Source of the DNA: an uncultured Bacteriovoracaceae bacterium
Lineage (GTDB): Bacteria; Bdellovibrionota; UBA1018
Assembly (NCBI GenBank): GCA_964364175.1
Contig: CAYILR010000002.1
Coordinates: 69,357-133,356 of the forward strand
Direction of reading: 5' to 3'
DNA length: 64,000 bases
The notes beneath the pieces were generated by a model, which saw only the letters and a program-made list of their open reading frames with translations, was not told the DNA's origin and searched no databases. How positions within the stretch are numbered: position 1 is the first letter of the stretch; every line of letters begins with the position of its first letter. Both the position numbers and the translations under genes were made by a program. Below, one piece after another: positions 39,020 through 62,548 of the stretch.

Positions 39020-39096
39020 AGCAAGCCTGACCGTACAACAGATAAATTCGTCTAATCAAGCGTTACTCCAGCTATTTTTGAATCATCACCAATCTA

Positions 39097-40451: not shown

Positions 40452-40646
40452 AGTTTATGGGAAATACTGCGTTTCTTTGAAATTGACCAGGGGGTACCCA
40501 GAAAAAATCGGCCGTTCTTTAATCTGTGAGCACGGATTTGGAAGGTTTTCTACCAAATCGAAGGTCACAGACCCTTTGCAACCCCTCAAATGGAAGGATT
40601 CCTTCCAAATCACAGGCCACAGATTTTCTTACCTTCCGAAAATTTA

Positions 40647-45952: not shown

Positions 45953-45978
45953 GGCCCCAGCATTATACGGTTTCGGGC

Positions 45979-46743
45979 ATGTCCGCAACCCGCTATCTCA
46001 CTCTCAGCATCGATGATGGCTACCCGGGTGACCTGAGAACCATCGAGATGCTCAAGAAGTATGGCTTGAAGGCGACTTTCTATGTTCCGGGGCTGAATCC
46101 CGAGCGGCCGAAACTGCCCGATGCACAGGTTCGTGAGATTGCGCAGGATCCTGATTTTGAAGTGGGTGGCCATACCTACAGCCATACTTCGCTGCATGTG
46201 AAGAGCGATGCTGTTGCGTACGAAGACATCGTCAGAGGCAAAGATTGGCTCGAGAACGTGATTGGGAAGAAAACCGTTTCGTTCTGCTATCCCCAGGGCA
46301 AATTCAACTCCCGGACTCCGGGGCTTGTAGAAAAAGCCGGATATCTGGGTGCGCGGACTTGCATGCTCAACTTGAATAGCTATCCAAAAACTCCATTTCT
46401 CTGGGGTGCGAGTACTTTGGGGTATTCGTTGCCACCGCTGATCCAAATTAGACACGCACTGATTGAGGGAAATTTTGAGGGAACTTGGAATTACTTCAAA
46501 AAATTTCGCCTCACTCAGGATTGGGCCCAGCACTTTCGGATCGCTCTGGACGATGTAGAACAAGACGGCGGGATCGCTCATCTGTTTTTTCACACCTGGG
46601 AAATCGAGGCTCTGGATCAGTGGAATTTGCTGGATGGGATTTTGAAAGAAATTTCGACCCGTAAGTCGCTTAAACGGGTGACAAACGGAGAGCTTTTTGC
46701 CAAATTTCATTCGGAATATGCAAAAGGCAGTCTCTCGACTTGA
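45979..46743 (+). CDS. polysaccharide deacetylase (NodB-homology, CE4)
   Basis: 'LTLSIDDGYP' is motif 1 (D-D). 'GGHTYSHTSL' is motif 2 (H-x4-H). 'CYPQG' follows. Confidence 0.8.
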   Translation: MSATRYLTLSIDDGYPGDLRTIEMLKKYGLKATFYVPGLNPERPKLPDAQVREIAQDPDFEVGGHTYSHTSLHVKSDAVAYEDIVRGKDWLENVIGKKTVSFCYPQGKFNSRTPGLVEKAGYLGARTCMLNLNSYPKTPFLWGASTLGYSLPPLIQIRHALIEGNFEGTWNYFKKFRLTQDWAQHFRIALDDVEQDGGIAHLFFHTWEIEALDQWNLLDGILKEISTRKSLKRVTNGELFAKFHSEYAKGSLST

Positions 46744-48007
46744 GAAATTATTTCAAATCCTGATTTCGATTGGACTCGCTGCCGGTTTTTACTATGTTGC
46801 GCGCTACCAGAGCCCGCCTGGAAAAGTTTTTCTCCTTGGAAAAAACGTCCTTTCGCTAGCCGCATTGGGAATTTGGGTGGGGCTACTGCTCCTTTGGATT
46901 CTTTTTCTCACCCGAAGTCACAAGAAAATCAGTATCCGCTGGCGTGCTGCGATCTACGCTCTGTTACTCGTCGAGTGCACACCCTACCTTTTTAGTTTTG
47001 GAATCATCTGGCCTCATCACTGGCCCCGAAGTTCACCCAACGACATGCCCGGGCACGAGTGGTGCTATCCCGGATATATTTTCCTGAGACAAGAGTACAA
47101 CGTTTGCGGAAAGCAAAATGCTGAGGGTCGGTACGATCAGGAATTTTCGCTAACACCTGCGCCCGGAGTATACCGCGCCGCTTATCTGGGCAACTCGCAC
47201 GTCGAGGGACGATCGATTCCACTGGAGAAAAAAGCGTCCAAGCTGGCGCAAGCCTCGCTCAATCAGCAATTGACGAGCCATCGATTTGAAATCATGGATT
47301 TCTACATTCCGGCGATGCGTGCGTTGGAAATTCTCACTACCACTCGGGGCGATTTGCAAAAGCACGGCGTTCAACATGTCATTTTAAAATCGATGGGCGT
47401 CGAGGACGAATTACTGAAACCTGTCTCTGCTGAAGACGCGCCTCCGACCGGACTTTATCAAAACGCTTTTCTTCAACGCCTGATTCACGTTCCGTTTTCG
47501 AATCTGCTCTCCCTTCTCGCTTGGAACGGATTACGAATGTACATCGAACTCTACAATCCTGGAGTCGCAACGATTTCGTCCGAACCCGCTCCAACACCAC
47601 AGCTCAAGGAGTGGGTGCAATCCCAGTGCGGAATTGAAAATCCCAGAATGATTCATAAACTCGCCGTTTATCTTCAGGGAATTCAACGATCCTATCAAAG
47701 TTTCAAGTCTGTTGATCTAGGTTCACAAAAGATGACGATCGTTCAAATTCCTCAACTCGAACCCTTGATTCTCTCGAATGCAGTTCTCAATAAATACGAA
47801 ACCTGCCAAACGGAAATTCATCAGCGAGCATTTGAGGAGGCCTTCGCTGGATCCAAAACTGTTAATTTTGTCGATGTCACTCCGATGTTGGCTCAATATC
47901 ACACTCATGTTTCAGAAATTTATTTTCCAGCAGACAGACATCTGAATCAGTTGGGCAATCAGATTGTTGGTGAGGCTATCGCTCAGGGGACAAAATGGTA
48001 TTTCTAA
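46697..48007 (+). CDS. DltD/AlgJ-like putative SGNH-fold acyl-transfer accessory protein with an N-terminal TM anchor (tentative)
   Basis: Single N-terminal TM region and then a soluble domain. Overlaps the MBOAT gene start. Family call is by context. Confidence 0.35.
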   Translation: MPNFIRNMQKAVSRLEKLFQILISIGLAAGFYYVARYQSPPGKVFLLGKNVLSLAALGIWVGLLLLWILFLTRSHKKISIRWRAAIYALLLVECTPYLFSFGIIWPHHWPRSSPNDMPGHEWCYPGYIFLRQEYNVCGKQNAEGRYDQEFSLTPAPGVYRAAYLGNSHVEGRSIPLEKKASKLAQASLNQQLTSHRFEIMDFYIPAMRALEILTTTRGDLQKHGVQHVILKSMGVEDELLKPVSAEDAPPTGLYQNAFLQRLIHVPFSNLLSLLAWNGLRMYIELYNPGVATISSEPAPTPQLKEWVQSQCGIENPRMIHKLAVYLQGIQRSYQSFKSVDLGSQKMTIVQIPQLEPLILSNAVLNKYETCQTEIHQRAFEEAFAGSKTVNFVDVTPMLAQYHTHVSEIYFPADRHLNQLGNQIVGEAIAQGTKWYF

Positions 48008-49158
48008 CCTCCTGGTTCTTTGCATTTCTGCTGGTTGCAGTTTTGACGTACATTTTTCTCCCGCGTGCTTGGAGAAAATACTGGCTCCTCGCTATCAGCA
48101 TGGTTTTCCACGGACACTTCGCAGGGCCGGCTGGAGTTTTGCCCATTGTGATTTTGGGTGTGACTGTCTATCTCGCTGCGCTCGCCATTGAAAAATGGAA
48201 AATTGCCACGCCGATGTGGACTGTAGGCGCTGTCTGTATATTAGCGTTGATTTACTATAAATACACGGGGTTCTTGTTAGAACTCGTAGGAATCTCCCCA
48301 GAAAAAACTCCCGTCGCACCGCTTGCGATTTCATTTTTTACTTTTGAATTCGTCCACTACCTGATCGAAGTCAAAAAAGGCGGTCCTGCTCTCAAGAACC
48401 CGATCGATTTTTGGTTATTCGCCGTATTTTTCCCCACCATTGCCAGCGGACCGATCAAACGCTATCGAGATTTTCAAGCGCAGCTCGATGCGCTCCCTAA
48501 AAAGAAAATCACAGCGCCTGAGATTCACGAAGGACTTTATCGAATTACCTCGGGGCTTTTCAAAAAACTCATCATTGCCGAGTGGGCCGTCGATCACATC
48601 CATCGTATCGAGCCCTGGTTGCACGATTCGTCCCTTTCTTCCGGATATCTTTGGGCCTTGGTCGGCTTGCAAACCACTCGCATCTATATGGATTTTGCTG
48701 GTTACAGTGACGTGGCAATTGGAATTGCGCTGCTATTGGGAATTCGCGTGCCCGAAAACTTTAATTGGCCGTACATAGCACACAACCTGAGTGACTTCTG
48801 GACACGTTGGCATATCTCACTCAGCTCGTGGATTCGAGACTATATCTATATTCCACTGGGTGGCGGCCGTGTCTCGGCCCCACGCAAGGTTTTCAATGGC
48901 TTCAGCGCCATGGTTCTTTGTGGAATTTGGCATGGACCGGCTTTGCATTTTGCTGCATGGGGAATTTATCATGGTTTGGGATTGGCGCTGCAAGAACCCA
49001 TTTCTAAGATAGTGCGTCCTCTTTTCCCCTCCGAAAAAATCTACCGGAGTTGGACGCGCGCATGGACTTTTCTCTTTGTGGCACTCGGTTGGTTAATCTT
49101 CTTTTATGAATGGAGCGATTTGAAATGGATTTTGGCAAGAATGATCGGTCTGAGCTAA
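47995..49158 (+). CDS. MBOAT-family membrane-bound O-acyltransferase (DltB/AlgI-like)
   Basis: 'FTFEFVHY', 'IASGPI' and 'WHISLSSWIRDYIYIPLGG' with the conserved His are MBOAT hallmarks. Confidence 0.85.
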   Translation: MVFLTSWFFAFLLVAVLTYIFLPRAWRKYWLLAISMVFHGHFAGPAGVLPIVILGVTVYLAALAIEKWKIATPMWTVGAVCILALIYYKYTGFLLELVGISPEKTPVAPLAISFFTFEFVHYLIEVKKGGPALKNPIDFWLFAVFFPTIASGPIKRYRDFQAQLDALPKKKITAPEIHEGLYRITSGLFKKLIIAEWAVDHIHRIEPWLHDSSLSSGYLWALVGLQTTRIYMDFAGYSDVAIGIALLLGIRVPENFNWPYIAHNLSDFWTRWHISLSSWIRDYIYIPLGGGRVSAPRKVFNGFSAMVLCGIWHGPALHFAAWGIYHGLGLALQEPISKIVRPLFPSEKIYRSWTRAWTFLFVALGWLIFFYEWSDLKWILARMIGLS

Positions 49159-49193: not shown

Positions 49194-50657
49194 ATGTTGA
49201 AAAAATACCAATCAAAACTTTGGGTTTTCCTTGGACTAGGTATTTGCACGATCCTTCTCGCGAGCTGGATCCAACTCGCTCTGCATAAACGACTCTGGAC
49301 TGATGAGGGAAATGAAATTTTGTCGAATTGCCCTCAGGGATGGCTATCGTTAGCGCAAGGCGCGGACACACAATGCAGTCCCTCTCCGCTCTATTATTTC
49401 TTTCTTAAGTTAACCGTTTTACCGATCCATGTTTTTGATCAAACTATTTTGCTGAGTTATCGGAGTGTTTCTCTGGGGGCAGCTTTTGCTTTAGGAGTGG
49501 TATTTTTTTTATATCTAGGCTTTCGCTGGGGTTGGGCAAGCGGGTTGATTGGTCTTTTGGCCTTGGCTCAACAGGGGTTGTTTCACCAATACGCGGCTGA
49601 AAATCGACCTTATATGCTTTGGCTTTTGGTGTTTTTTGTTCATCTTTGTTGTTTTTCAGATCTTTGGACAACGGCCCAGGACAGGACTCGGACATTAAAA
49701 TCCGCAGGGTTTGTTGCTCTATCCTCATTGGCGCTGACTGCTATTGCGGGACCAGGGATGCTCCAGGTTTTTTGTAGCGCGGCTAGCGTGCTGCTATTCG
49801 CACTTGTTTTTCGCCAAACTCACCGATTTCGCTCATGGTGGCGCTTTTTGGCCATTGTAACTCTGGCTTGTTTAGGAATAGGAGTCTTCTATTCTCTAAA
49901 AAGCTGCAAATATGAAAACGCAGGTGATTTCGATTTACTCTATACTCGCGATATCAATCTGGTTCTGGGTGTAATTCGCCTATTTTTGCCTAAAAGCGTT
50001 TTTCGCTTCCCTGATACTGCTTTGGTCTTCAATGGATTCTTTTTATTTGGCGTCTGGACGGCTTTGCGCCGCCTACTCAAACGACAAGAAAAGCTGGAGG
50101 CAGGTGGTATTCTGGCTTACCTCTCACTGTTTCAACTCGGATTGGCATTTCCAATAGCGATACTTATAGCTGTGAAACACTACTATTTTCTGCAGAGAGT
50201 TTTTATTTTTATTTTGATCCCATGGGCGATTTTGGCGTCCTATGGCGCCCGTGAATTACTTCACTTAGGTTGGGTTCAAAAATTCAAGGTTCTTCCCCTG
50301 CTTCTCCTGATTCTTTCGATCCCTCGCGTGGTGACATTGGAAGCAAATGCCAGGACTCCTTTTTATGACATCGAATGCGATATGATTCAGGACGTCCAGT
50401 TTACTTCGATTTATCTAGATCGGTTGCCATATCCAGATGTTCAAGCCAACGTTTTAGTGGATTTAGATCGCGCCTACCGAAAATGCGGATATGATCCAGC
50501 AAAGGCCACAAAAGCTTCTCTTTTGATCCATTTTGAGCCTACCTTGCCACAGCTTTATCGTTTAGAAAAACTAAGCGCATCCTCACAGCCATTGCCCAAG
50601 TGGATTTCTCTAGAGCAGTGCGGAAAACAGATTCGCGATATACCTCAGAGGTACTGA
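49194..50657 (+). CDS. GT-C (ArnT/PMT-like) polytopic membrane glycosyltransferase candidate
   Basis: TM1 then 'RLWTDEGNE' (DE motif). More than 10 TM. First of three tandem paralogous genes. Confidence 0.5.
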   Translation: MLKKYQSKLWVFLGLGICTILLASWIQLALHKRLWTDEGNEILSNCPQGWLSLAQGADTQCSPSPLYYFFLKLTVLPIHVFDQTILLSYRSVSLGAAFALGVVFFLYLGFRWGWASGLIGLLALAQQGLFHQYAAENRPYMLWLLVFFVHLCCFSDLWTTAQDRTRTLKSAGFVALSSLALTAIAGPGMLQVFCSAASVLLFALVFRQTHRFRSWWRFLAIVTLACLGIGVFYSLKSCKYENAGDFDLLYTRDINLVLGVIRLFLPKSVFRFPDTALVFNGFFLFGVWTALRRLLKRQEKLEAGGILAYLSLFQLGLAFPIAILIAVKHYYFLQRVFIFILIPWAILASYGARELLHLGWVQKFKVLPLLLLILSIPRVVTLEANARTPFYDIECDMIQDVQFTSIYLDRLPYPDVQANVLVDLDRAYRKCGYDPAKATKASLLIHFEPTLPQLYRLEKLSASSQPLPKWISLEQCGKQIRDIPQRY

Positions 50658-52069
50658 TGAACATTTTTGAAAAATATATTGAGTCTGATGCAGATAGAAT
50701 TCACCGTTGGGTTCTATTATTCGTTGCAATTACTTTATTTGCCACGCTCAACGATGCGTCGCTCTGGCTGGATGAAGTGGCAACCGTGAGCGCCTCTGGG
50801 CTGGTTGATTTCAAATCGGGTTTCATCGAAGCATTCCACGATGGTCAGATGCCTTTTGTTTATTTTTCGATTTTTGTTTCTCGCCTGCTTTTTGGTAGCA
50901 ATGAGTTTGCCTCAAGATTGCCTATTGTTCTTTTTGCTCTAGGGTTTTTATGGGTCTTGCCGCGGCTTTACAGGCAAGCGGGCTATAAGCCAATTCTAGC
51001 AACCGTTGCAGCGGTCCTTTTGGCGTTTCATGGGAAATTTATTTTTTATGCACAAGATGCACGCTTTCACATGCCAGGGGTCTGCGCCTTGTTTATCTGG
51101 GCAGCCTATCGCAAATCAGGATCCTGGAAATCTTTTAGCGCCTGCTTGATAGCTCTTTTTACACATACTTTTTCTGTGATCACGGTGGGCGCCACTCTGG
51201 GTATCGATATTTTCTCTGAATGGTATTTCGAAAAAAAATCATTTAAAGAGCTGTTTTTAAAATATGCCCCGAACTTCACTGCTTTGCTCCTGTTTTCTCC
51301 CGCCTACTTATTTCTCATCACTTTGATGCGGAAATCCCGCCTCCAAGGAGTCGGAATTACTGACTTTACTCAGCAGGTTTTTTCCAGCCTTGAAATCATT
51401 AAAAACGCATGGCTTTTCTTTTTTGATTCTCGAAGTACTATTTGGATTGTTTTGAGCCTGATTTCAATCTTTGCAATTATTTTTCGCCGCAATTCACTCA
51501 CCAATTTTCTGCTTGCTGCTGTCTGCGCAGTGCTGTTTCAAGCGCTGATTTTTGGCTTCACTCAACAATGCTTTTTTCCAAGGTATCTATTGCTGCTATT
51601 GCCGCTTGTGATTGTGGGTTCGGTGACTTTGCTACAATTGACTGCTCTATGGGGAAAGCTGTTAGTACCTGTGATCTTTTTGTCTCTTTATTTTCTACCC
51701 CACCTTTCCTTTCAAATCCGACCATGGCCAGGGGTTTTGGCTCAGCTTTTTCCAATGACGGCTCAAGAACTCAGTACGACACACAAAGAAAACTGGCGTG
51801 ATATGACTAAAACCCTCGCTTGGCTAGCTAAGCCAGGGGAGAGCATCGGCCCATCATCCGATTGCGGTGGAGACTGCTCCAAATATCCCATTCTATTTTA
51901 CGGAGGCAATGAACCGGTGATTCAATCCCTGACTTGGATTGATCGTATAGAAACTTGTGCCAGCTGGATCGTTTCCACCCATTCCAATCTCTCTGAAGTC
52001 CGTGGCTGCAAGGAGATTAAACCCGTTGGGAATTTCTCGACTCTTTTTCTTTACCAAGGAAAGCCATGA
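50657..52069 (+). CDS. GT-C (ArnT/PMT-like) polytopic membrane glycosyltransferase candidate; start at the ATG overlapping the upstream stop (TGATG)
   Basis: 'ASLWLDEVATV' DE motif after TM1 and more than 10 TM. Confidence 0.5.
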   Translation: MNIFEKYIESDADRIHRWVLLFVAITLFATLNDASLWLDEVATVSASGLVDFKSGFIEAFHDGQMPFVYFSIFVSRLLFGSNEFASRLPIVLFALGFLWVLPRLYRQAGYKPILATVAAVLLAFHGKFIFYAQDARFHMPGVCALFIWAAYRKSGSWKSFSACLIALFTHTFSVITVGATLGIDIFSEWYFEKKSFKELFLKYAPNFTALLLFSPAYLFLITLMRKSRLQGVGITDFTQQVFSSLEIIKNAWLFFFDSRSTIWIVLSLISIFAIIFRRNSLTNFLLAAVCAVLFQALIFGFTQQCFFPRYLLLLLPLVIVGSVTLLQLTALWGKLLVPVIFLSLYFLPHLSFQIRPWPGVLAQLFPMTAQELSTTHKENWRDMTKTLAWLAKPGESIGPSSDCGGDCSKYPILFYGGNEPVIQSLTWIDRIETCASWIVSTHSNLSEVRGCKEIKPVGNFSTLFLYQGKP

Positions 52070-53880
52070 TTTTTTATCTCATTCTCATTTGTTTTTTAGT
52101 GGTCTACGGCTTTTCAACCACTCTTTTTTCAGCATTCACAATGGGCATCACTCGCGATGAACCCTTCTACAAAGAAATGGGCACTCTGTATCTCAAACTT
52201 TTTGACTTCGGAATCAGCATGGATCACCCGCCCTTTGCAACCTGGTTCGGGGCGCTGATTCCCCATTTTCTCAATTTGCAGCAGATGTTTTTTTTCCGGA
52301 TTGCTCATGTAGCTCTCTATACGCTCGCCGGTATTTTTTTTATTTATTACTTTTATAAAAATAAGAAAACATTCGCTGCCCTGATTTTTTCCATGCTTTT
52401 TTTCCTGGATCCAAACATGAAGGCAACAGCTTCCCTCAATGTCATTGATGCGGATTTGGCGATATGGATGGCCTTGGCTTTTTTTTATATTTGGCGGTTC
52501 TTGCGGGAGAAGCCTTCGAATGAAAAACCTGCCCTCCCTTTTTTAATCGGCCTTTTGTCTGGGCTGGCAGCCAATTCAAAAATAACAGGACTGCTGGTCA
52601 TGTTCTGCGGGGCAATCGTAGTAGGGTTGAAAATTTCAAATCCTGCATTGAAGGGGCGCAAACTTGTCGCTCGAGTTTCACCCGGACTATTTTTTGCTGG
52701 AGGAGTCATACTCTCTTTTTTGATAGCCTATCTATTCCATCCTTCTCAGATTCTTCTGTACAAAAAGAACATTGGATTCCAGCTAGTTCACAATTCATTT
52801 GGCCAGCCAGGATACATGCTGGGAAAACATTCTGAAATGGGGTTTTGGTACTTTTACCTAGTCTCTTTTTTTCTGAAAGAGCCCCTTGCGTGGTTGATAC
52901 TTCTTTTCATTCCCATTTTATTCAGCAGAAAGCATCTCGACCGAGCTACAGCACTTGTTTTTTTCGCCCCTGCCGCCATCATGCTTCTGGTTTTTTCGCT
53001 AGGCCACGTACAAATTGGAATCCGATATTTTTTGCCAGGCATGCTGCTCTTAGAATTGGGAGCAGCCATCGTTTTTGATCAATTCGTTCAGAATCTGAAT
53101 CAACGGTACAGACAAATGACACTTGCTGTGTCACTCGCGTTGGGGATCATTCTTTTGGGAGTTGATTTTTCCACAGTTGCATATGGATCGTATCTATCTT
53201 TTTTTAATACCCTAGCTCCAACTCCATCGAGAAATTTTACAGAATCCAATATTGATTGGGGGCAAGGCATTCCAAAACACCTCACGCATAGATGCCAACC
53301 CACCCAGCTCGCTTTGGATGGCCCATTTTCAAACATTTTCGAATCTCAAAAATCAATCCGTTTCATTGCCCCTCCGCTGCTGATGAATTCGAATCCATTG
53401 ACAAAAAATCACTACGTTCCTCTCAAAGAGTTTCAATCTCAGAACGTGATCGCGGGCTATGAATGCTTTGAATTCAATAATAACCAATTATTTGAGTATC
53501 TCTGGGTATTAGATCACTGGAAGCTTCATGACAGTGCCCCCAAAAGCCCGGAATCCTTGCTTCATGCCATCCAACAATCGACTCAGCACTTTTGTGAGCA
53601 ACCTTCGTCGATTAAAATATCGATGCAAACCGTTCAGGTTGGACAAAAGATCACTGTCGTTCCCGGACAGCCTCAACTCCTTTTGCTCAAACGCGGACAA
53701 AAAGCTTTCGTGGTTGATTCGAATGGAACTCGAAAACCGATGATCGCGTTTGATGAAAATCGCTCGCCACTCAACGAGGTCAGAGTGTGGATTTCCGCAG
53801 TGGACCATCCCCAATCCTTCCTCTTTTCGTCGACAAAATTAGATTCGACCGGCTATTTAGTCACCCGATCTTGTCTCTAA
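52066..53880 (+). CDS. GT-C (ArnT/PMT-like) polytopic membrane glycosyltransferase candidate with a C-terminal soluble domain
   Basis: 'MGITRDEPFY' DE motif. 'ANSKITGLL' loop. About 190-aa C-terminal periplasmic-type domain. Confidence 0.55.
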   Translation: MIFYLILICFLVVYGFSTTLFSAFTMGITRDEPFYKEMGTLYLKLFDFGISMDHPPFATWFGALIPHFLNLQQMFFFRIAHVALYTLAGIFFIYYFYKNKKTFAALIFSMLFFLDPNMKATASLNVIDADLAIWMALAFFYIWRFLREKPSNEKPALPFLIGLLSGLAANSKITGLLVMFCGAIVVGLKISNPALKGRKLVARVSPGLFFAGGVILSFLIAYLFHPSQILLYKKNIGFQLVHNSFGQPGYMLGKHSEMGFWYFYLVSFFLKEPLAWLILLFIPILFSRKHLDRATALVFFAPAAIMLLVFSLGHVQIGIRYFLPGMLLLELGAAIVFDQFVQNLNQRYRQMTLAVSLALGIILLGVDFSTVAYGSYLSFFNTLAPTPSRNFTESNIDWGQGIPKHLTHRCQPTQLALDGPFSNIFESQKSIRFIAPPLLMNSNPLTKNHYVPLKEFQSQNVIAGYECFEFNNNQLFEYLWVLDHWKLHDSAPKSPESLLHAIQQSTQHFCEQPSSIKISMQTVQVGQKITVVPGQPQLLLLKRGQKAFVVDSNGTRKPMIAFDENRSPLNEVRVWISAVDHPQSFLFSSTKLDSTGYLVTRSCL

Positions 53881-55062
53881 TCGAGACTTTCTGATCAGAA
53901 GCAGAAGAAAAGCCCAAACTCCGATCAAGGTGAAAAGAGGAATGTATTTTGTAGCTACCTGAAGAGTCAACTGAATCGGTTTTGGAAACGGATTCTCACC
54001 ATAGGGAAAGCAAACCAACAGCAAAATCAAGACGAACCAGGAGCTGAATTTTGAAAAACTCTTCGAATTTTTCACCGCACCCAGTACGAAAATGGTGGGT
54101 ACCAAAACTTGGATGAACTGGTAAGATTTGATCCGAGGAAGCAAAAGTGAGTATGAAGTCAGCACCAAATAGACCGTTTCAAGCAGACTAGGTTTAAAAC
54201 GAATGATCCAAAAAAAGCTCACTCCAAAAATTGATACTGAGCTCAAAGCATATATTGTGAAAGACAAAGACGAAGGCAAGACTTTGTACCCGCTTTCCGA
54301 AAGCGTGCGGCTCAGGTCACCCATCAATGCATAAATCGACGGACTCAATGTTCCAAACTCGGTCACTCGTTGAGAGGCCTGATTCACAAATTCCGCCCAA
54401 GGCTGTGAATAAAAAATCATTTGATAGGCGATCAATCCAAGAAACACGAGGCTAGAGGCAATCAGGCAGCTGATCTTCTGGCGATTCGGCCGATACAAAA
54501 GCAGGATGAGCAAAACAATAGGCGTCAGCTTGAACAGCGAAACCAAAACTACGCACGCACCAAACAAAAAATTTCGATTCGAAATATAGCCGTAAAATCC
54601 AATCCAAAGAACTGCTTGTTCAAATAAAGTCACATTTCCGCTGGCGACATCCCAAAATAACGCGCCATTGTAACCTAGCAATAATACACACCCTGCCCAA
54701 ATTTTTTTTAAATCAGGGATGAATTTTTTCTCCCAAAAATAGAACAATCCAATCATCACAAAAAGCTGAGAGATCAGCCATAATACAGAAGCCTGTGAGT
54801 ATTTGATCAGCGACAGTGGCTTCACCAGCGCAAAGGTAATCGGCGGATAAACGTAGCTCCCCGTGACAACCGTCGCCTCTGGAGGAAGTATTTGCCGAGG
54901 ATCAAACTGATAGGGAACGAGCCCCTTGAGTAGAAGCATCGATGCGCTGTAATAAGCATTGAAATCCCAGTGGTAGGCATGGATTCGTGTACCAACAACA
55001 GAGAAAAACAGAAGAGCTAAGCCCATGTATACAATCGATGATAAATATTTCGAGCTTTGCAA
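53857..55062 (-). CDS. polytopic membrane protein, GT-C-like (DUF2029/GT87-like) candidate
   Basis: About 400 aa with about 10 TM and an architecture like polyprenyl-P-mannose-dependent mannosyltransferases. Confidence 0.4.
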   Translation of the reverse strand: MQSSKYLSSIVYMGLALLFFSVVGTRIHAYHWDFNAYYSASMLLLKGLVPYQFDPRQILPPEATVVTGSYVYPPITFALVKPLSLIKYSQASVLWLISQLFVMIGLFYFWEKKFIPDLKKIWAGCVLLLGYNGALFWDVASGNVTLFEQAVLWIGFYGYISNRNFLFGACVVLVSLFKLTPIVLLILLLYRPNRQKISCLIASSLVFLGLIAYQMIFYSQPWAEFVNQASQRVTEFGTLSPSIYALMGDLSRTLSESGYKVLPSSLSFTIYALSSVSIFGVSFFWIIRFKPSLLETVYLVLTSYSLLLPRIKSYQFIQVLVPTIFVLGAVKNSKSFSKFSSWFVLILLLVCFPYGENPFPKPIQLTLQVATKYIPLFTLIGVWAFLLLLIRKSRLETRSGD

Positions 55063-55078
55063 ACGACCTCCGGGATTA

Positions 55079-56716
55079 TTAACTAGACGAACTGCGCTTT
55101 CCGTTCAGGTAGTCATTCGGCAAATACACTTGGCAACTCTTGGGATCCCCATACTGACGTTGAGTAGAAAATCCGAGCCGCTTCAAAATACCATCCATTC
55201 TCTCACTCGCTAGCCGACAACTCACCACCGCGCCCAAACGTCGGCCTTCTAAATTCAACAACCTCAATGACTCCACCATAGTGGTACTGCCAACATCACG
55301 ATCAAAATTATCCATGATCGCTCTGCGTCCCATGTAATAGGGCAGCTCGGACGACCAATCACACCCATACATCAACAGAACTTCATCCGGATGGGTATGC
55401 TCCCGGACAAACTGAATCATCTGGTAATCCAAACCTACCCAATTGGACTCTTCCATCTGCATAGGCAAATAGGTTTTTTGAAACGACGCGTGACCACTCC
55501 AGACCACCAAAAAGCTGGTCAAAACCACAACCGAAGTCCGAAGCCATATTCTGCCGTCCTTCAATGCAGCGTTAATACAAAACACAAAAGCGGCGATAAA
55601 AAAGACGACATTTGCATACTGATAATAGTTGTGAACGATGTGAAGATTCGTAAAAATCAAATAAACACCGAAGAAACAAATCAAAGAACCTGCCGCTAAA
55701 ACTCGATCTTTCCGATCTCGGATCAAAAAAAGTGAAGTGCATCCCAAAGCGACGAAAACATACCAGTAAGTACCCATCGCCTCCCAAAACATACTGGGAA
55801 CACGATGAATCCAAATATCCAGCGATCTCCTCTGAGCAGACGTTCCAAAATTCCACAATCGCAATGCACGCGAATTGATGAATCCGTTGGCCAACGGATT
55901 TTTGATTTTCACCTGATCAGCAAAACTGGTCCACTGAACAGTCGCGAGCAGTGGTATAAAAGCCAAAATCATTCCTGCAGGAACCCACTCTCTCAACCAA
56001 GTCCCAATATTTTTAAGCCTATCCCTCTTCTGCCAAATCTGCACCAGGGTTGCCAAAAAAACTGCCAATAAAAAACCGATCCATGTCGTTGCTTTGATTG
56101 CACCGGCAAGGGCTCCAAAAACAGCCGTGAGCCCAGCGTTCGCCCAACCTCTCTTGCGCAAATATCTGAGCGCAAACGCCAGATAAGCTGCCGAGAAAAA
56201 AAGTGCAGTCGATTCGATCATCACCGTTCGGGACCAGAACAGATAACTGGGTGAAGACAATAGGAGAGACAGAAAAATCCAACGTGCCAGAATCGAAAGC
56301 CCAAGCTCAGAAACACAAACCCAAAAAAAAGGTAGACTGGCGTAGAAGAAAGCCTGCGAAACGATCCGACCCACAGGAGCGATATCCCAACCCGAAATCC
56401 ACGACGTAAATGCCACCACCCATTGGTAAAATGGAAATTCAAACGGAATCGACCAGGGAGGACCTAAAACCGGCGTTTCGTATCTGAGTAGAGGCCCGCC
56501 TTTCAAAATATATTCTGCAGAAATCAAAGTCTGGGCCTGACGAAAACCGTGAGCATCCCCAATGTAGGTCTTCCAGAGCGCAATCGGAAACTGTGTCAAA
56601 CTGAAATAAAGCGTGTAGAGAAAAAGAGAAATCCCCAGGATCAGCGGTAATTCACTGAGGACAACCGAAACCCATGTGGGAACTGATCTTTGACGAGATT
56701 GCGTCAAAGACGTCAT
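55079..56716 (-). CDS. GT-C (GT39/ArnT-like) polytopic membrane glycosyltransferase candidate
   Basis: 545 aa, multi-TM, periplasmic loops and a C-terminal soluble region. Confidence 0.45.
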   Translation of the reverse strand: MTSLTQSRQRSVPTWVSVVLSELPLILGISLFLYTLYFSLTQFPIALWKTYIGDAHGFRQAQTLISAEYILKGGPLLRYETPVLGPPWSIPFEFPFYQWVVAFTSWISGWDIAPVGRIVSQAFFYASLPFFWVCVSELGLSILARWIFLSLLLSSPSYLFWSRTVMIESTALFFSAAYLAFALRYLRKRGWANAGLTAVFGALAGAIKATTWIGFLLAVFLATLVQIWQKRDRLKNIGTWLREWVPAGMILAFIPLLATVQWTSFADQVKIKNPLANGFINSRALRLWNFGTSAQRRSLDIWIHRVPSMFWEAMGTYWYVFVALGCTSLFLIRDRKDRVLAAGSLICFFGVYLIFTNLHIVHNYYQYANVVFFIAAFVFCINAALKDGRIWLRTSVVVLTSFLVVWSGHASFQKTYLPMQMEESNWVGLDYQMIQFVREHTHPDEVLLMYGCDWSSELPYYMGRRAIMDNFDRDVGSTTMVESLRLLNLEGRRLGAVVSCRLASERMDGILKRLGFSTQRQYGDPKSCQVYLPNDYLNGKRSSSS

Positions 56717-57789
56717 GATTCACCACCAAAAATAGGTCTCAAATCCACCTCGTTTTGACGAATCCACTGGTGAATGTTTTCGACGATGTCTTTGATACTC
56801 TTTTTGGGCTTCCAACCCAAAGCCTGTGACACCTTGGTGTTGTCAGAAATATACAACGGGATATCCACTGATGTCGTTTGTGTATCCGAAGCGATCTCGA
56901 TCTTGCGCCCGGTGACCTGCTGACAAATCGCCGTCAACTCACACAACGAAGTGGACACTTCTGTTCCTCCACCCACATTGTAAACCTCTGCTGCCCCGAG
57001 CGACTGAATCTGCCGAATCTGCGTCTGAATCAAGTCAAACAAATCCAGCGGGTGCAACAAATCGCGTACTTGCTTTCCTTGTCCACCGAAACCCGTGTAC
57101 TTCAATGGTTTACCGAAATAATGATTCGCGACCCAAAGGGTAAAAACTCCTTGATCGACTTTGCCAAACTGCCCAGGGCCCGCGATGACTCCGCAGCGAT
57201 TGATTACTGCTTTCATCCCATAAGTGTCGGCATATTCTTGAATCACGAGCTCGGATGCTAATTTGGTGGCTCCATAAATCGATCGGGGTAAATGCGTGGG
57301 GAAATTTTCAGCCACGCCCTTTTCGGAGGCACCTGAGAATTTTTGATCTGCTTTCAATTCCAAGCGTGTACTTCCCTCACGCAATGCCAATTCCCTCAGA
57401 GGCTGAATGGAATACACACGAGAAGTTGAAAGAAAAACCATCATGCCTGCTCTTTTACGGGCCAACTCCAAGCAATTGAGCGTACCCGTGAGATTCGTCT
57501 GCAAAACATATGCAGGAGATCCGCTCAAACCCGCCAAAACACTGGGTTCAGCAGAAGCCTCGACAAAAACATCGAAGTTCCCCTTCAAATCGTTCAAATC
57601 ATCGGCACTGCGAATATCTCCATGAACAAATTCAATCTGATTTTTTTTAAACAAAGGGATGTTGAGTTCAGAACCCCGACGGCGCAAATTATCCAAAGCA
57701 ACTATTTCGTCCTGAGGACCGGCTTCTCGAAAAGCCAACGCAAGCCGCGATCCGACAAAACCAGCTCCACCTGTGATGAGAATCCTCAT
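56713..57789 (-). CDS. NAD-dependent epimerase/dehydratase (SDR), CDP-paratose-2-epimerase-like; start at MRILITGG (4-bp overlap with the upstream GT2)
   Basis: 'ILITGGAGFVGS', 'LSTSRVYS' and 'GKQVRDLLHPLD'. Confidence 0.75.
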   Translation of the reverse strand: MRILITGGAGFVGSRLALAFREAGPQDEIVALDNLRRRGSELNIPLFKKNQIEFVHGDIRSADDLNDLKGNFDVFVEASAEPSVLAGLSGSPAYVLQTNLTGTLNCLELARKRAGMMVFLSTSRVYSIQPLRELALREGSTRLELKADQKFSGASEKGVAENFPTHLPRSIYGATKLASELVIQEYADTYGMKAVINRCGVIAGPGQFGKVDQGVFTLWVANHYFGKPLKYTGFGGQGKQVRDLLHPLDLFDLIQTQIRQIQSLGAAEVYNVGGGTEVSTSLCELTAICQQVTGRKIEIASDTQTTSVDIPLYISDNTKVSQALGWKPKKSIKDIVENIHQWIRQNEVDLRPIFGGES

Positions 57790-58538
57790 AGAGGCGCCTC
57801 TCGCTTGCTGCGATGATAATCTCCCCGCGAAAGCCATTTCTCAATCCAACAATACAAAATAATAAATAGGTAACGAGAACCCATTTCTTTGATTTTTAGC
57901 TTCGAAATCCCAGTTTTTCGGTTGATCCAATCGTTGGGAATCACCGTATAGCTGTATCCACGCACGATGGATTTCAACGGCAACTCGACCGTGAGATTGA
58001 AATGATGGCTTAAAAAAGGCTGAATCCCTTGGATCACTTCTTTGCGATAGAGCTTAAAGGCATTGGTCACGTCGTTGTAACGAAGCCCAAAAAGAATCTG
58101 GATAATCTTGTTGGCGATCCGATTGAGAAAAAGTTTGAATCCAGGATAATCGATAATTTTTGACTCACGCATAAAACGTGATCCAAAAACACAATCTACT
58201 CCTTTTTCATTCATTGCTCGAAAAAATCGCACCAGATCTTCCGGCCGATCCGAGGCATCTGCCATAAAAACAGCAACCGCGTCCCCTTGAAAATTTTCTA
58301 GCCCCTTGCGAACCGCAAAACCAAAACCGTGAGGCGGAACATTATTGATGTAGCGAACTCCAGCTAACTCCGCTTGCAGCCTCTTTAAAATCGTTTCTGT
58401 CTGATCAGAAGAATTGTCATTGATCACCAGAATTTCGTGATCGATTTTTTCTGCCTGAAGAGTACGCGACAATGCACCTACAGTCCCCTCAATGCACCCT
58501 TCTTCATTATGTGCAGGAATCACGACCGAAAGCTTCAA
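57786..58538 (-). CDS. glycosyltransferase family 2, polyprenyl-phosphate sugar synthase type (DPM1/ArnC/GtrB-like)
   Basis: '[11 protein letters not shown]', 'INDNSSDQT', '[10 protein letters not shown]' and 'VFGSRF' with a hydrophobic C-terminus. Confidence 0.8.
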
Positions 58539-59599
58539 TTCGGCCTCTCGCGTGCAGCCTCAACCATTTCTTTCAAAATTCGCTTGAGGTCGTACTGATA
58601 TTTCCACTCCGGATAATCGGATTGGAATTTGCGAACGTCGCTCACCCACCAGATGTGATCGCCTGAGCGCGCTTGATCCGAGAGGCTGTACTGTAACTTG
58701 CGCCCGCTGATTTCTTCGGTGATTTGAATCGCTTCTAGCATCGAGCAATTGCTGTGCCGTGAACCGCCCATATTATACACCGCACCGGCGCGAGGATTTT
58801 TGTAAAAGCTCCAAAATGCACTCACAAGATCGTGTGAGTGAATGTTGTCGCGAACTTGCTTACCCTTATATCCAAAAATCGTATACGGTTTCCCATGCAC
58901 CGTGCACTTCACCAAATAAGCAAGAAATCCGTGCAATTCTGCACCAGAATGCGAAGGACCCGTGAGACAGCCGCCTCGAAACGTGCCTGTTTTCATCCCA
59001 AAGTAACGACCGTATTCTTGAGCAAGAACGTCTGCGGCCACCTTGCTCGCTCCAAAAAGACTGTGCTTGGATTGATCGATGGTCAAAGTCTCGTCGATTC
59101 CGTGCTTGGCATATGTATGCGACGGATCTAGTTCCCAACGCATTTCTTTTTCTACGAGTGGGAGAAAATTTGGAGCATCCCCATAGACTTTATTCGTGGA
59201 AGTAAAAATAAACACAGCATCAGGACAATACTTCCGGGTGTTCTCCAAAAGCACCAGCGTGCCATTCGCATTGACTGTGAAATCCGTGTACGGCTCGCGT
59301 GCGGCCCAATCATGGCTGGGTTGTGCTGCCGTGTGAACCACCAGGGAAATCTTCTTGCCCATTTCCGAAAAAACCTTCGCGATGGCCTGATCGTCTCGAA
59401 TATCAATTGAAAGGTGGGTGAAATTTTTGAAGCTCTTTTTGAGGCGCTCGGTATTCCACTCAGTCGATCCATCCTGACCGAAAAAATACTTTCGCATGTT
59501 GTTGTCGATCCCGACTACCTCGAGCCCTTGAGCGTGCAGGAATTTTACAGTTTCACTTCCGATGAGTCCTGATGAACCCGTGACTATGGCGACAGACAT
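58535..59599 (-). CDS. NAD-dependent epimerase/dehydratase (SDR), CDP-paratose/tyvelose-2-epimerase-like
   Basis: '[10 protein letters not shown]'. '[12 protein letters not shown]' matches RfbE '[12 protein letters not shown]'. '[13 protein letters not shown]' matches 'GKQVRDVLHAEDM'. Confidence 0.8.
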
Positions 59600-59701
59600 C
59601 CTAGACTCCTCTTGCAGTATAAAATGACAATCATTTGCATATGTGTTTGATATTCACTAATACGGTATTGTTCAACCCTTTTCTATGGATATGAAACGGA
59701 T

Positions 59702-61240
59702 ATGAAACTCAGCTCTCCAGCTCCTGTCAGTTTTTCCAGCTTGCGATTCTGGATGCTGATTTTGGGCGGAATTTGTCTCATTTTCCAGGTCATCAAAGCA
59801 GCCACTACAGGCCTCTGGTGGGACGAAGCTCTCATTCTCAAACCCATCTCTTCGATGCTTGCGGGCGAAGGCTGGAAAGCAATGGGCGTATTGTTTCACG
59901 AGGGCATCAGCACTGGACCGGCACTGCTCATTCCCGGACTGCTGCTCAGTTGGCTGACTCACGGGCCTGTTCCGCCTCTGCTCCACCTTCTTGCTCTTTC
60001 CCATCTTTTACTGCTTTTTTTTGGCTGGAAAAGATGGGGGGTTACCTATTTCGAAGCTGCAGTCATTCTCGGAATTTACCTCATCATTGTGACCCTTTCG
60101 CCCAAACTTTATATCACTCATTTTTTGGGAGAGTTCCCGGGTAGTGTTTGGTTTCTTTTGGGGGCTTGGCTTGCCTTCAGCCCGATCAAAAATCGCTTAC
60201 AGTTGCAATGGGCAGGCATATTTTTCATGCTCTCCATCTTGTCCAAATTCATTTTCATCATGCCGATTGCCACGTCGCTTTTTGCGTGGCTGCTGTTCCA
60301 GCGAATTCATCCTTTCACCCGGAAATTTTGGACTTTTTTCTTTAAACTTGCGTTAGGCGCTCTAGTACCCTGTAGCTTTTGGGTTTTATTTCAGTGGCAA
60401 CAGTATGGAAATCTTGTCGGCATGCAGGAGGGGTACCTGCGGTGGTTGAATCTGATTCTTCATGGAGACAATGGCGCAGGCCTACAACAATCCAGCCAAG
60501 CGGGGGGTTTGATCAAACCCATGAGAATGATTTTTCAGGATGTGCAGGGCCTGATGATTTCTGGCACTGCTCCTATACTGGTTTTAGGCTGGTTAGCTTT
60601 TCAAGTTTTCTCCATTCGTCAAGCCTGGAAAGATAGGAAGCCATCTGCTTCTTTGTGTATAGCCGTTGGCAGCACCTCTGTTTTGGCTTGGTGGGTCTTC
60701 CTTTCTCGGTTTGGTGGCGGTGGTGCGCTTTTTCGGCATGTGAGTCCAGTCATCTGGATTGGTTTGGGTGCAATGTGCAGGGACTGGTTTTTTTTCCGTG
60801 GCATGAGTCGACTGAACCAAAATCATGGGTACCCCGTTCTAGGCGCGTTACTCAGCCTCGGCCTCACAGGAGTTTTGGGCTTTCGATCCTATCAGTATGT
60901 TTTTGAACACAAGGGGCTCGGGCTTTATTCTTCGTGGTATCACCAAAACCAAATCCAAAAATGGATTATTACAAACTCAACCACTGAAAATCCCGTTCCC
61001 GTTTTAAACTGCACGGCAGATGGCCATGTTTGGTATAGCAATGTTTATCTTCCACTTGCGTCACTCACCCCTCCCGATCGCTACTTTGTCTTAGAGCCTT
61101 GTCGGCTTCCCTCAGGCTCGCTCCAGAGCAGCCGGTTCTTAGTCGGAATCGAGGCTCATCACCTGAATGATTTTGATCGAGGACTGCTGACCTTGGTCGA
61201 CGGTTCCTGGGATGGGCAAGGCCTCTATCAAATCAAATAA
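59702..61240 (+). CDS. GT-C (ArnT/PMT-like) polytopic membrane glycosyltransferase candidate
   Basis: 'TGLWWDEALILKP' DE motif after TM1, more than 10 TM and a C-terminal soluble domain. Confidence 0.5.
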   Translation: MKLSSPAPVSFSSLRFWMLILGGICLIFQVIKAATTGLWWDEALILKPISSMLAGEGWKAMGVLFHEGISTGPALLIPGLLLSWLTHGPVPPLLHLLALSHLLLLFFGWKRWGVTYFEAAVILGIYLIIVTLSPKLYITHFLGEFPGSVWFLLGAWLAFSPIKNRLQLQWAGIFFMLSILSKFIFIMPIATSLFAWLLFQRIHPFTRKFWTFFFKLALGALVPCSFWVLFQWQQYGNLVGMQEGYLRWLNLILHGDNGAGLQQSSQAGGLIKPMRMIFQDVQGLMISGTAPILVLGWLAFQVFSIRQAWKDRKPSASLCIAVGSTSVLAWWVFLSRFGGGGALFRHVSPVIWIGLGAMCRDWFFFRGMSRLNQNHGYPVLGALLSLGLTGVLGFRSYQYVFEHKGLGLYSSWYHQNQIQKWIITNSTTENPVPVLNCTADGHVWYSNVYLPLASLTPPDRYFVLEPCRLPSGSLQSSRFLVGIEAHHLNDFDRGLLTLVDGSWDGQGLYQIK

Positions 61241-62548
61241 TCATTGATGCGGCGGCTGGCATCGGTACATCAATCCATAATCTGCCTTGGGTGCTCCGCA
61301 ATTTTCGTGCAGATAAGAAAGAAACTGCCAACTCAGAAAAATTTGAGAACACAAGAAAAGCGCGAACCAAACTCGCTGCTTTTTGAAAGAAGTAAAAATC
61401 AGATAAACTAACCATAGATAAGTGAGAGGGAAAAACGTAATTAAATAGTGCCGATGCACCATCAATCTTTTCAAAGTAATGAGTAACCCAGCTCCAAATA
61501 ATGCAGCATTCAGTATAAATCGAGTTTCTGAACCAGAACCGCTCAAAAACTGCTTCAAATTTCTATATTGATGCTCCTTGAAAAAAAGTACCACCTTCTT
61601 CAAAACCAAAACCACTACGCCCAGATGCAACAGAATTGAAACTGCTTTCACGCCATATGTGAAATGCCCAAAAAACATCGGTAGTTTCTCAAATTCGGTG
61701 TAATAATCGCCAATGGCATACATCAAGCGGGTTCCCAAAGGATCCGTTGCCCACGTCCTATAAAATGGAAAAGACAAAATCTGTTTTAAATTGATTTGAT
61801 AGGAATCCAACCCACGTATTCCACCGTCAAGAAGGAGGTATTTCAGCCAGGGCAGGGCAGGCAAAACACCGATTCCCACTCCGAGGAAATAAAATTTCCA
61901 CCGGGTAGAATTCCGATCAAACAAAACTATCCACAGAAAAAAACCCGCTGCCAAAAAAAGCGGGCTCATCTGAAGCTGGAACATCAGCACGCCGATTAGG
62001 CCCCACAGCAAAGCTCCTGTTCTCTTTCCCCTCTGAAGAAAGAACAATAAGAATAAAACTGAAAAAAGTGGGAAAAGGCACTGAGGCCAGATTTTTCGTT
62101 GGAACAAAACTGCGAATGGATTGACCCACGCGACCAGCATTGCGGCCCACCAAAATTTGGCCTCCTTTTTTTCTCGAAGATAAAAGGGAATCAGCAACAC
62201 TAAGGAAGTACCGACGATATTCCAATACTGAACAGCACGAGCCAATTCCTCTGGGCGAGTGGCACCATACACCTTCCCCAAAAGGATAAACATCCAAGCA
62301 CTCAAGCCGCTGACCTTGATCCCCACACTGGAAGCCATCCCAATGAGGGGAATATCCGCCCAAGAATGAGTTCTCATCATCGCATTAAAAGACCAGATTT
62401 CATCATTCTTAAATTCGATATCGAGTGGCCAAATCAACCTAAAAATAATGCCCACCGCAATAATCACGGATGCCAGGGCGAGATCTATCCATTTCAAATC
62501 ATAGGTTTTTAAAAAACCCAGCCAGCGCTCTCTCATCTCATTTCTCAA
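61241..62548 (-). CDS. polytopic membrane protein, GT-C-like candidate
   Basis: 'WPLDIEFKNDEIWSF' acidic loop after TM1 and about 11 TM. Confidence 0.4.
   Translation of the reverse strand: MRNEMRERWLGFLKTYDLKWIDLALASVIIAVGIIFRLIWPLDIEFKNDEIWSFNAMMRTHSWADIPLIGMASSVGIKVSGLSAWMFILLGKVYGATRPEELARAVQYWNIVGTSLVLLIPFYLREKKEAKFWWAAMLVAWVNPFAVLFQRKIWPQCLFPLFSVLFLLFFLQRGKRTGALLWGLIGVLMFQLQMSPLFLAAGFFLWIVLFDRNSTRWKFYFLGVGIGVLPALPWLKYLLLDGGIRGLDSYQINLKQILSFPFYRTWATDPLGTRLMYAIGDYYTEFEKLPMFFGHFTYGVKAVSILLHLGVVVLVLKKVVLFFKEHQYRNLKQFLSGSGSETRFILNAALFGAGLLITLKRLMVHRHYLITFFPLTYLWLVYLIFTSFKKQRVWFALFLCSQIFLSWQFLSYLHENCGAPKADYGLMYRCQPPHQ

Follow-up and report, generated by a model that had tools for sequence, protein, structure and literature searches.

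A polyprenyl-phosphate sugar synthase feeding a membrane glycosyltransferase of the GT-C fold is a known arrangement. In the three-component Gtr systems (O-antigen glucosylation in Shigella and Salmonella; CsbB/GtcA/YfhO in Firmicutes), a DPM1-like enzyme of glycosyltransferase family 2 (GT2) makes an undecaprenyl-phosphate (Und-P) monosaccharide that is used by a GT-C enzyme outside the cytoplasm. In the Arn pathway (ArnA/B/C/D/T) and in the mycobacterial PpgS-GalE1(Rv3634c)-Rv3779 system, a short-chain dehydrogenase/reductase (SDR) tailors the nucleotide sugar, the DPM1-like GT2 loads it onto polyprenyl phosphate and a GT-C enzyme uses it. DprE1 and DprE2 epimerise decaprenyl-phosphate-ribose at the lipid level. 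The locus considered here lies in a window of 64,000 nucleotides from an uncultured Bacteriovoracaceae bacterium (GenBank assembly GCA_964364175.1, contig CAYILR010000002.1, positions 69,357 to 133,356 of the forward strand; "the window" always means this whole stretch). It is an operon in which genes for two SDRs, a DPM1-like GT2 and two membrane glycosyltransferases follow one another. On balance, the operon can be read as the core of an extracytoplasmic glycosylation system of the Gtr/Arn-like kind, providing both donor synthesis and transfer. The synthase feeding a GT-C enzyme is the known part of this arrangement; its two non-orthodox SDRs, the altered DXD motif of its GT2 subfamily and the orphan status of its GT-C partners are the new part.

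The resemblance to each described system is partial. As in Gtr systems, orthologs of the GT2 are fused to a GtrA-type domain, and a YfhO-like GT-C enzyme occurs in one related locus. However, the module here has two dedicated SDRs, its GT2 lacks the transmembrane (TM) domain of GtrB and reads MADASD rather than DADLQ, no GtrA gene was detected in the window, and the GT-C partners (the family of M545, the product of the fourth gene, and a second family, C1) belong to no Pfam family. Similarly, ArnC and PpgS are among the weak family matches of the GT2, and GalE1 Rv3634c is among the structural neighbours of the first SDR (SDR1). The SDRs here are nevertheless related to CDP-tyvelose 2-epimerase (TyvE) and belong neither with the ArnA decarboxylases nor with the GalE 4-epimerases, the catalytic tyrosine is missing from one of the two, and the operon holds none of the aminotransferase, formyltransferase and deformylase genes of the Arn pathway. 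The pentofuranose (GT136) systems, represented by DprE1/DprE2 and ORF13 of Citrobacter youngae O2, also have epimerase genes beside polyprenyl-phosphate-sugar and GT-C genes (PMC11127046). Their donor derives from phosphoribosyl pyrophosphate (PRPP) through a phosphoribosyltransferase, so that epimerisation must follow loading, whereas the GT2 here is of a nucleotide-sugar-dependent type. Moreover, the SDRs of the present module also occur without the GT2, and no DprE1-like flavoenzyme is found in or beside the operon.

Organization of the operon

Five closely packed genes can be read on the minus strand of 53857..59599, in the order SDR1, GT2, SDR2, M545 and a GT87-like gene; the operon thus has at least five genes and is longer than first described. 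Pfam and PDB matches identify the products of the first three as a 354-aa extended SDR (SDR1, 58535..59599), a 250-aa soluble-type GT2 resembling DPM1, GtrB and ArnC (57786..58538) and a 358-aa extended SDR (SDR2, 56713..57789), both SDRs being distantly TyvE-like. The fourth gene (55079..56716) encodes M545, a 545-aa integral membrane glycosyltransferase assigned to the GT-C fold from its AlphaFold2 (AF2) model and Foldseek, and predicted to use the GT2 product. The last gene (53857..55062) encodes a GT87-like membrane glycosyltransferase of 401 aa (PF09594, E 1.3e-15).

The open reading frames (ORFs) of the two SDRs and the GT2, as described in the original prediction, are present on the minus strand, and independent metagenome gene calls (ENA ERZ1292616) give the same 354, 250 and 358 aa; the two 12-residue peptides that had been quoted from the SDR1 product are both found in it. 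The proposed translational coupling of GT2 to both SDRs is likewise read directly in the sequence. The TTG start of GT2 (58538..58536) overlaps the TGA of SDR1 (58537..58535) as TTGA, and the ATG of SDR2 (57789..57787) overlaps the TGA of GT2 (57788..57786) as ATGA. A further ATGA overlap places the ATG of M545 (56716..56714) on the SDR2 stop codon, and the GT87-like gene begins 16 nt past the M545 stop, at a TTG located 5 nt after GGAGG. The TTG start of GT2 is backed by a 13-residue N-terminus conserved in 20 orthologs. Ahead of the operon, a ribosome-binding site (AGGAG, minus strand, 59606..59610) is positioned 6 nt 5' of the SDR1 ATG, inside a divergent intergenic region of 102 nt (59600..59701). 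A promoter and terminator scan of 53400..60100 gave counts not above those of shuffled sequence, with no site in 59600..59701.

GT2, its membrane partner and the recurrence of the module

GT2 matches PF00535 (E 6.5e-25), and its closest solved relatives are the dolichol-phosphate-mannose synthase (DPMS) of P. furiosus (5MLZ, 2.6e-17), GtrB sll0501 and ArnC. It forms a distinct subfamily: NCBIfam scores reach no more than 63 bits, where the cut-offs are 262-700, and the matches below cut-off are of the polyprenyl-phosphate type, including ArnC and PpgS, together with the non-lipid glucosyl-3-phosphoglycerate synthase. The sequence MADASD stands where relatives read DADLQ, so that only the second aspartate is kept, and residues M92, A93, D94, S96 and D97 are invariant across 21 sequences. 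The window protein has no TM segment and shows only a hydrophobic C-terminal helix of 19 residues; Nostoc-type cyanobacterial orthologs carry an N-terminal GtrA_DPMS_TM domain (PF04138, E 1.5e-12). These fusions and the solved relatives bear out the earlier view of GT2 as a polyprenyl-phosphate glycosyltransferase of the DPM1/ArnC type. Database homologs number more than 8000 at E below 1e-20, the best 120 being 71-100% identical, and a scan of viral contigs returned no GT2 relatives. One apparent double GT2 (P0002) was rejected as an assembly duplication.

The AF2 model of M545 (pLDDT 88.5, pTM 0.90) has GT-C enzymes as all of its top 45 PDB matches in Foldseek (E down to 2.4e-8, TM-score about 0.5), including STT3, DPY19, ALG9/12, AftA, PglB, AglB, Pmt, AftD and Emb. 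This relationship required a fold search, as a profile of the M545 family found nothing among PDB sequences. M545 itself has no Pfam or NCBIfam match even at an E of 5 and falls in no named GT-C family (GT39, GT83, GT87); hhalign of the family profile against the PMT-like protein encoded at 52066..53880 gave no signal. Some homologs are labelled GT39-, ArnT- or RgtA-like by their sources, or show weak PF13231 or PF02366 matches. In the first-loop motif GDAHGFRQ, the aspartate is present in the majority of sequences but in fewer than 90%; in the same loop, E93 is invariant and E80 nearly so.

The link between GT2 and M545 is most directly expressed in natural fusions of 885-892 aa, in which a domain orthologous to GT2 (249 aa aligned at 69% identity) is joined to one resembling M545 (495 aa at 37%). 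Eight near-full-length sequences of this kind (842-892 aa) were found in JGI, ENA, SRC and Logan data, and one of them is immediately preceded by a pair of neighbouring Epimerase-family SDR genes (353 and 355 aa) and followed by a methyltransferase gene. Through such Rosetta-stone fusions, a GT-C family that had been an orphan gains a donor synthase. More widely, a large membrane protein (350 aa or more, five or more TM segments) is encoded within three genes in 63 of 79 related loci. The commonest of these nearby membrane proteins belongs to an unclassified family without Pfam match, marked by a DIPYWDEWE motif, a member of which follows the trio of SDR1, GT2 and SDR2 in Cystobacter fuscus; in one Pseudomonadales locus an M545-like protein is followed by a YfhO-like GT-C enzyme. 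Because of the fusions, the GT-C fold of M545 and its ATGA coupling to SDR2, use of the GT2 product by the adjacent GT-C enzyme, one of the points on which the original prediction had offered itself for refutation, is strongly supported. By homology and fusion, GT2 is very likely a polyprenyl-phosphate sugar synthase feeding GT-C enzymes of the M545 type.

The module is widespread yet, by the literature searched, uncharacterised. A genome scan with one genome per species recovered at least 592 relatives of GT2, the best 80 of which are 60-74% identical. Hosts of these best 80 belong to Bdellovibrionota/Oligoflexia, Myxococcota, Acidobacteriota, Elusimicrobiota, Saccharibacteria, Moranbacteria, Planctomycetota, Lentisphaerae, Cyanobacteria (Nostoc, Microcoleus, Microcystis), Bacteroidota, Chloroflexi, Armatimonadota and several proteobacterial groups; among the matches listed, the closest to the window come from metagenome-assembled genomes of Oligoflexales and Pseudobdellovibrionaceae. 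SDR genes were sought within 10 kb in 51 genome loci in which GT2 is flanked by 5 kb or more on either side. Both SDR orthogroups are present in 33 of these, SDR2 only in eight (all Microcoleus), SDR1 only in five, and neither in the remaining five. The 33 full-trio loci span Bdellovibrionota, Myxococcota, Acidobacteriota, Cyanobacteria, phyla of the candidate phyla radiation (CPR), Bacteroidota and others. Gene order takes at least six arrangements (including 2-1-G, 1-2-G, 1-G-2, G-2-1 and G-2-x-1, with 1, 2 and G for SDR1, SDR2 and GT2), and this variability points to genes kept together by function, not by inherited synteny.

A class I S-adenosylmethionine-dependent methyltransferase (about 220-230 aa) often joins the module as its fourth gene, in about 19 of 79 loci (L004, L013, L018, L022, L077, L084, L089 and others), which suggests later methylation of the sugar. 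The window operon has no ortholog of it, the nearest being a weak 30-bit match at 19273..20043. FkbM-type methyltransferase genes adjoin SDR1 in L093 and L122, two loci without the GT2. Loci of Microcoleus and related cyanobacteria (L040, L045-L047, L049, L050, L052, L055-L057) carry GT2 and SDR2 with no SDR1 nearby. There the pair follows a cyclic nucleotide-binding/C39-peptidase ABC exporter of about 1000 aa together with HlyD-like and GT-C-like proteins, and a Uma2 endonuclease gene often separates GT2 from SDR2; this organization may point to a link between glycosylation and a type I-like secretion system.

The SDR pair and its place in the pathway

Both SDRs match PF01370 (E 1.9e-37 and 6.9e-36) and have the CDP-tyvelose 2-epimerases 1ORR and 9RL0 as closest solved relatives (E 2e-34 to 5e-33). 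SDR1 is 31.0% identical to 1ORR over 316 aligned positions and SDR2 31.2% identical to 9RL0 over 330, while characterised TyvEs are 60-70% identical to one another (PMC7851689). The two proteins are 29% identical and form separate orthogroups, and no NCBIfam equivalog comes near its cut-off for either. A structural study of TaTyvE published in 2026 describes a Thr124/Tyr164/Lys168 triad, a TNK segment with an essential Asn125 and a VAM segment; the pyrophosphate is bound by Lys126, Arg237 and Arg299, with Lys126 bridging both phosphates of the nucleoside diphosphate (NDP) (PMC13098431). Both SDRs share the GKQVRD motif and the extended-SDR architecture with the TyvEs StTyvE (1ORR) and TaTyvE (9RL0), SDR1 also sharing TNK and SDR2 the triad, but TyvE serves 3,6-dideoxyhexose synthesis, whereas the context here is lipid-carrier glycosylation.

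SDR1 retains GxxGxxG, the TNK segment, Lys168 of YxxxK and all three pyrophosphate binders (Lys126, Arg237, Arg299), the VAM segment being replaced by PSH. The catalytic Tyr164 is a phenylalanine (HSLFGASK), a substitution found in 90% or more of 57 genome orthologs, in all 120 top database matches and in 70 of 70 metagenome loci. SDR2 retains the Thr/Tyr/Lys triad (TSR...YGATK) and the DQG sugar loop, but departs from TyvE in having Ser for Asn125 (TSR for TNK) and PSV for VAM. Among 150 SDR2 cluster representatives, which are at most 64% identical, the YGxSK/YGxTK motif has its tyrosine in 127; 22 give no motif match and one has leucine. At the pyrophosphate positions, SDR2 has arginine at 126 and keeps Arg237.

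By their active-site residues, neither SDR is an orthodox CDP-tyvelose 2-epimerase (EC 5.1.3.10). The label "CDP-paratose-2-epimerase-like", which both had been given, holds insofar as TyvE is the best match. It does not hold further, with identity of about 31%, no catalytic tyrosine in SDR1, no Asn125 in SDR2 and no VAM segment in either. Since SDR1 has phenylalanine at 164, the pair cannot be taken as two TyvEs, and the annotation is untenable for the SDR1 family as a whole: a large protein family annotated "CDP-paratose 2-epimerase" cannot work as annotated.

Two minor observations concern SDR2 relatives. Two distant SDR2-like proteins of the TNK type (P0443 and P0466, 39% identical) contain large inteins exactly at the active-site strand NRxxC|L(A/T)GP, with C...HNC boundaries. 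Apparent SDR2-SDR1 fusions (P0455, P0426) were rejected as frame-shifted read-throughs of GC-rich adjacent genes.

At which stage the SDRs act is best approached through loci where they occur without GT2. An SDR1-centred scan of metagenome contigs revealed SDR1 orthologs, 63-74% identical and all with the phenylalanine, in polysaccharide loci that lack the GT2. SDR1 accompanies an oxidoreductase, a WecG/TagA-family glycosyltransferase and a GT4 enzyme in L172, a PIG-L deacetylase and a sulfotransferase in L112, and an FkbM methyltransferase in L122, and it adjoins an ABC-2 exporter in L139; none of the four has a DPM1-like GT2 or a GT-C enzyme. The SDR1+SDR2 pair is found with Wzt, FkbM, GT2 and GT4 genes in L093 and L138, again with no DPM1-like GT2 and no GT-C enzyme; the adjacent proteins of no known family are a soluble one of 442 aa and a 10-TM protein unrelated to GT-C families. 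In such loci, a soluble donor for cytoplasmic transferases is the only possible SDR product. Together with the pyrophosphate residues kept in the SDRs and the structural neighbours of both, which are NDP-sugar enzymes throughout, and as neither protein has a hydrophobic segment by TM-segment counts, these SDR1-only and SDR1+SDR2 loci favour action at the nucleotide level, and it seems likely that the SDRs act on a soluble NDP-sugar before lipid loading.

The headline idea of the original prediction was that a sugar already linked to the lipid is modified. GT2 would then load a common sugar onto Und-P, and SDR2, SDR1 or both would modify the Und-P-sugar at the cytoplasmic face before it is flipped. 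There is genetic precedent: ORF13 of C. youngae O2, a GalE-like extended SDR, is proposed on genetic evidence to convert Und-P-ribofuranose to Und-P-xylofuranose (PMC11127046). The SDRs are, moreover, tightly coupled in translation to GT2 and the GT-C enzyme, a common donor would fit both the strong conservation of GT2 (60-84% identity) and the 18 of 51 loci with zero or one SDR nearby, and the retained basic residues could still bind a monophosphate. However, SDR1 alone and SDR1 with SDR2 are found in loci with Leloir glycosyltransferases and neither a polyprenyl-phosphate GT2 nor a GT-C enzyme, SDR1 keeps the Lys126 that in TyvE bridges both NDP phosphates (SDR2 has an arginine there), and neither SDR has a hydrophobic or amphipathic segment for membrane association. 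The precedents also start from PRPP, where epimerisation at the nucleotide level is impossible, whereas an NDP-sugar is available here. The analogy with DprE2 in particular is weak: both SDRs are of the extended nucleotide-sugar type of about 355 aa, and a domain search of the operon and its neighbours found no DprE1 FAD oxidase, no classical DprE2 SDR of about 250 aa and no PRPP-dependent polyprenyl-phosphate-ribose synthase. Modification of the lipid-linked sugar is therefore disfavoured and appears unlikely, though not negligibly so.

Within the preferred reading, in which the SDRs act on the nucleotide sugar, the role of SDR1 raises a separate question. SDR1 is the most conserved protein of the module: its top 120 homologs, among more than 8000 in the protein database, are 74-100% identical, mostly 75-80%. 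Its invariant blocks (one of 14 residues, GGCLTGPxHSG and one of 21 residues) map to positions lining the nucleotide-sugar pocket of TyvE, as do the conserved QPSHDW, TNK, LHGF and R.GDHIWW. The AF2 model is of moderate confidence (pLDDT 72), which is lowest in the active-site loops specific to the family. NDP-sugar SDRs make up all its top PDB matches, with TyvE the best structural match, and the loops are too uncertain for the model to reveal what replaces the tyrosine. Active SDRs without the tyrosine exist, as in the 4,6-dehydratases of the CapE/PglF type, which have methionine in its place.

SDR1 could instead be a non-catalytic paralog, either a pseudo-enzyme or a subunit that binds the NDP-sugar or NAD, forming a hetero-oligomer with SDR2 or docking on GT2 and channelling an unstable intermediate, with SDR2 alone catalytic. 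The universal phenylalanine would be explained in this way, and SDR1 and GT2 are far more conserved than SDR2, as would suit interaction partners. TyvE is a tetramer built on the helix bearing YxxxK (PMC13098431), so that mixed oligomers are structurally conceivable. On the other side, SDR1 is found alone, with neither SDR2 nor GT2, in the polysaccharide loci L112, L122 and L172, its most conserved blocks show the pattern typical of an active site, and the CapE/PglF-type enzymes are active without the tyrosine. A purely non-catalytic SDR1 thus seems improbable. The high conservation, the invariant blocks at pocket positions and the occurrence without SDR2 favour a catalytic role that would not need the tyrosine over a pure scaffold role.

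It is very improbable that GT2 is instead an ordinary cytoplasmic enzyme adding the SDR-made sugar to a growing glycan or small molecule next to unrelated membrane proteins: the missing first aspartate of the canonical DXD, NCBIfam matches far under their cut-offs and in part to non-lipid enzymes, and the lack of a TM segment in the window protein would fit such a role, but orthologs are fused to a GtrA/DPMS TM domain, fusions to GT-C domains recur, the top solved relatives are all polyprenyl-phosphate glycosyltransferases, and multi-pass membrane proteins are encoded near GT2 in 63 of 79 loci.

The pathway that emerges has four steps. Cytoplasmic, NAD-binding SDR1 and SDR2 would turn a common NDP-hexose into a rarer NDP-sugar, possibly, to judge from the TyvE-like scaffold, by chemistry at C-2 of the hexose. 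GT2 would then move the sugar from the nucleotide to Und-P at the inner face of the membrane, a step strongly supported by homology and by the fusions. The lipid-linked sugar would next be flipped across the membrane, and M545, probably with the GT87-like enzyme and other GT-C-like neighbours, would pass it to a periplasmic acceptor, for which O-antigen, another surface polysaccharide and protein are candidates. Synthesis of Und-P-mannose from an NDP-glucose was also considered; it fits C-2 epimerisation, the DPMS match and the GT87/PMT neighbours, and was not adopted because it leaves SDR1 unexplained.

Several observations weigh against this pathway. No nucleotidyltransferase or flippase gene was found near the trio, and the window holds no nucleotidyltransferase or GtrA-like gene; a hidden Markov model built from the GtrA domains of 16 fused GT2 orthologs matched none of the window ORFs of at least 80 aa. 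The donor chemistry of GT2 may be unusual, the first aspartate of the DXD motif being methionine, and a standard SDR redox role for SDR1 is doubtful in the absence of the catalytic tyrosine. Position 299 of SDR2, arginine in at least 60% of its orthologs, is threonine in the window protein. In 18 of the 51 GT2 loci, one or both SDRs are missing within 10 kb, which could reflect a GT2 that uses a common donor ahead of SDR action, or SDR genes located at other sites of those genomes. Finally, no paper on the trio or on a TyvE-like SDR with phenylalanine for tyrosine was found in the literature searched.

A more far-reaching version of the pathway is tentative and, on the whole, doubtful. In it, the module would make an undescribed polyprenyl-phosphate sugar (other than glucose, mannose, N-acetylglucosamine, N-acetylgalactosamine, 4-amino-4-deoxyarabinose and galacturonic acid) through a tyrosine-independent SDR1 (FxxxK) whose chemistry is unlike that of characterised nucleotide-sugar SDRs, and the resulting donor would be used by several unclassified GT-C families in a wide range of bacterial phyla, with cyanobacteria, predatory bacteria and CPR among them. 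If the sugar is new, it adds a donor to the short list of known polyprenyl-phosphate monosaccharides. Culturable hosts (Cystobacter fuscus, Nostoc, Microcystis and Halobacteriovorax) give access to the identification of both sugar and acceptor.

Surroundings of the operon

By its gene content, the whole window is a surface-glycan island. It includes a sugar C-methyltransferase, SDR and GFO/IDH oxidoreductases, acyltransferases, a UDP-sugar dehydrogenase, GT4 genes and two Wzy_C proteins, as well as a polysaccharide deacetylase, an MBOAT protein and, around the operon, at least six large unclassified multi-pass membrane proteins.

On the plus strand, 59702..61240 encodes a 512-aa multi-pass membrane protein with at least seven hydrophobic segments and a WWDEA motif. 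The operon had been described as facing a GT-C gene: this gene is indeed transcribed divergently from it, but the GT-C label has no Pfam match behind it. The protein gave no Pfam or NCBIfam match, and hhalign against the M545-family profile found nothing; from its hydrophobic segments and motif, a GT-C assignment is plausible. The 435-aa protein encoded next (61241..62548) belongs, from TM counts, to the same GT-C-rich neighbourhood. At the other end, a convergent plus-strand gene (52066..53880) encodes a PMT-like (GT39-type) membrane glycosyltransferase of 604 aa (PF02366, E 1.3e-7); this gene and the GT87-like gene overlap at their 3' ends. The PMT-like gene is preceded, at 49194..52069, by two adjacent unclassified multi-pass membrane proteins with the W(T/L)DE motifs typical of GT-C first loops. 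Their ORFs of 487 and 489 aa overlap by 58 nt, and a metagenome gene call shortens the second to 470 aa.

A Polysacc_deac_1 deacetylase, of the family that includes ArnD, is encoded on the plus strand at 45943..46743, with a long antisense ORF (45949..46710, minus strand) overlapping the gene almost exactly; a 436-aa protein of no known family and an MBOAT acyltransferase (46697..49158) adjoin it. Further DPM1-like GT2 genes are present in the window. Two of them (267 and 248 aa) enclose a DegT/ArnB-type aminotransferase gene (378 aa) on the minus strand of 8477..11144, an arrangement that recalls ArnB-ArnC, and a third, at 17930..19306, has a 200-aa N-terminal extension. Sugar-nucleotide tailoring genes at 11601..14873 and 21907..24281 encode a C-methyltransferase (Methyltransf_13/14), an SDR epimerase/dehydratase, two GFO/IDH/MocA oxidoreductases and a member of the UDP-glucose/GDP-mannose dehydrogenase family.

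On the minus strand of 36639..42158, genes for a LuxC-like acyl-CoA reductase, a LuxE-like acyl-protein synthetase, a TPR protein and an AMP-binding enzyme suggest an acyl or aldehyde modification pathway. A HipA_C kinase-toxin-like gene (20079..21062) lies in the stretch of lowest GC content (20001..22000, GC 0.38 against about 0.45-0.50 in adjacent sequence), and this region may be an inserted element.

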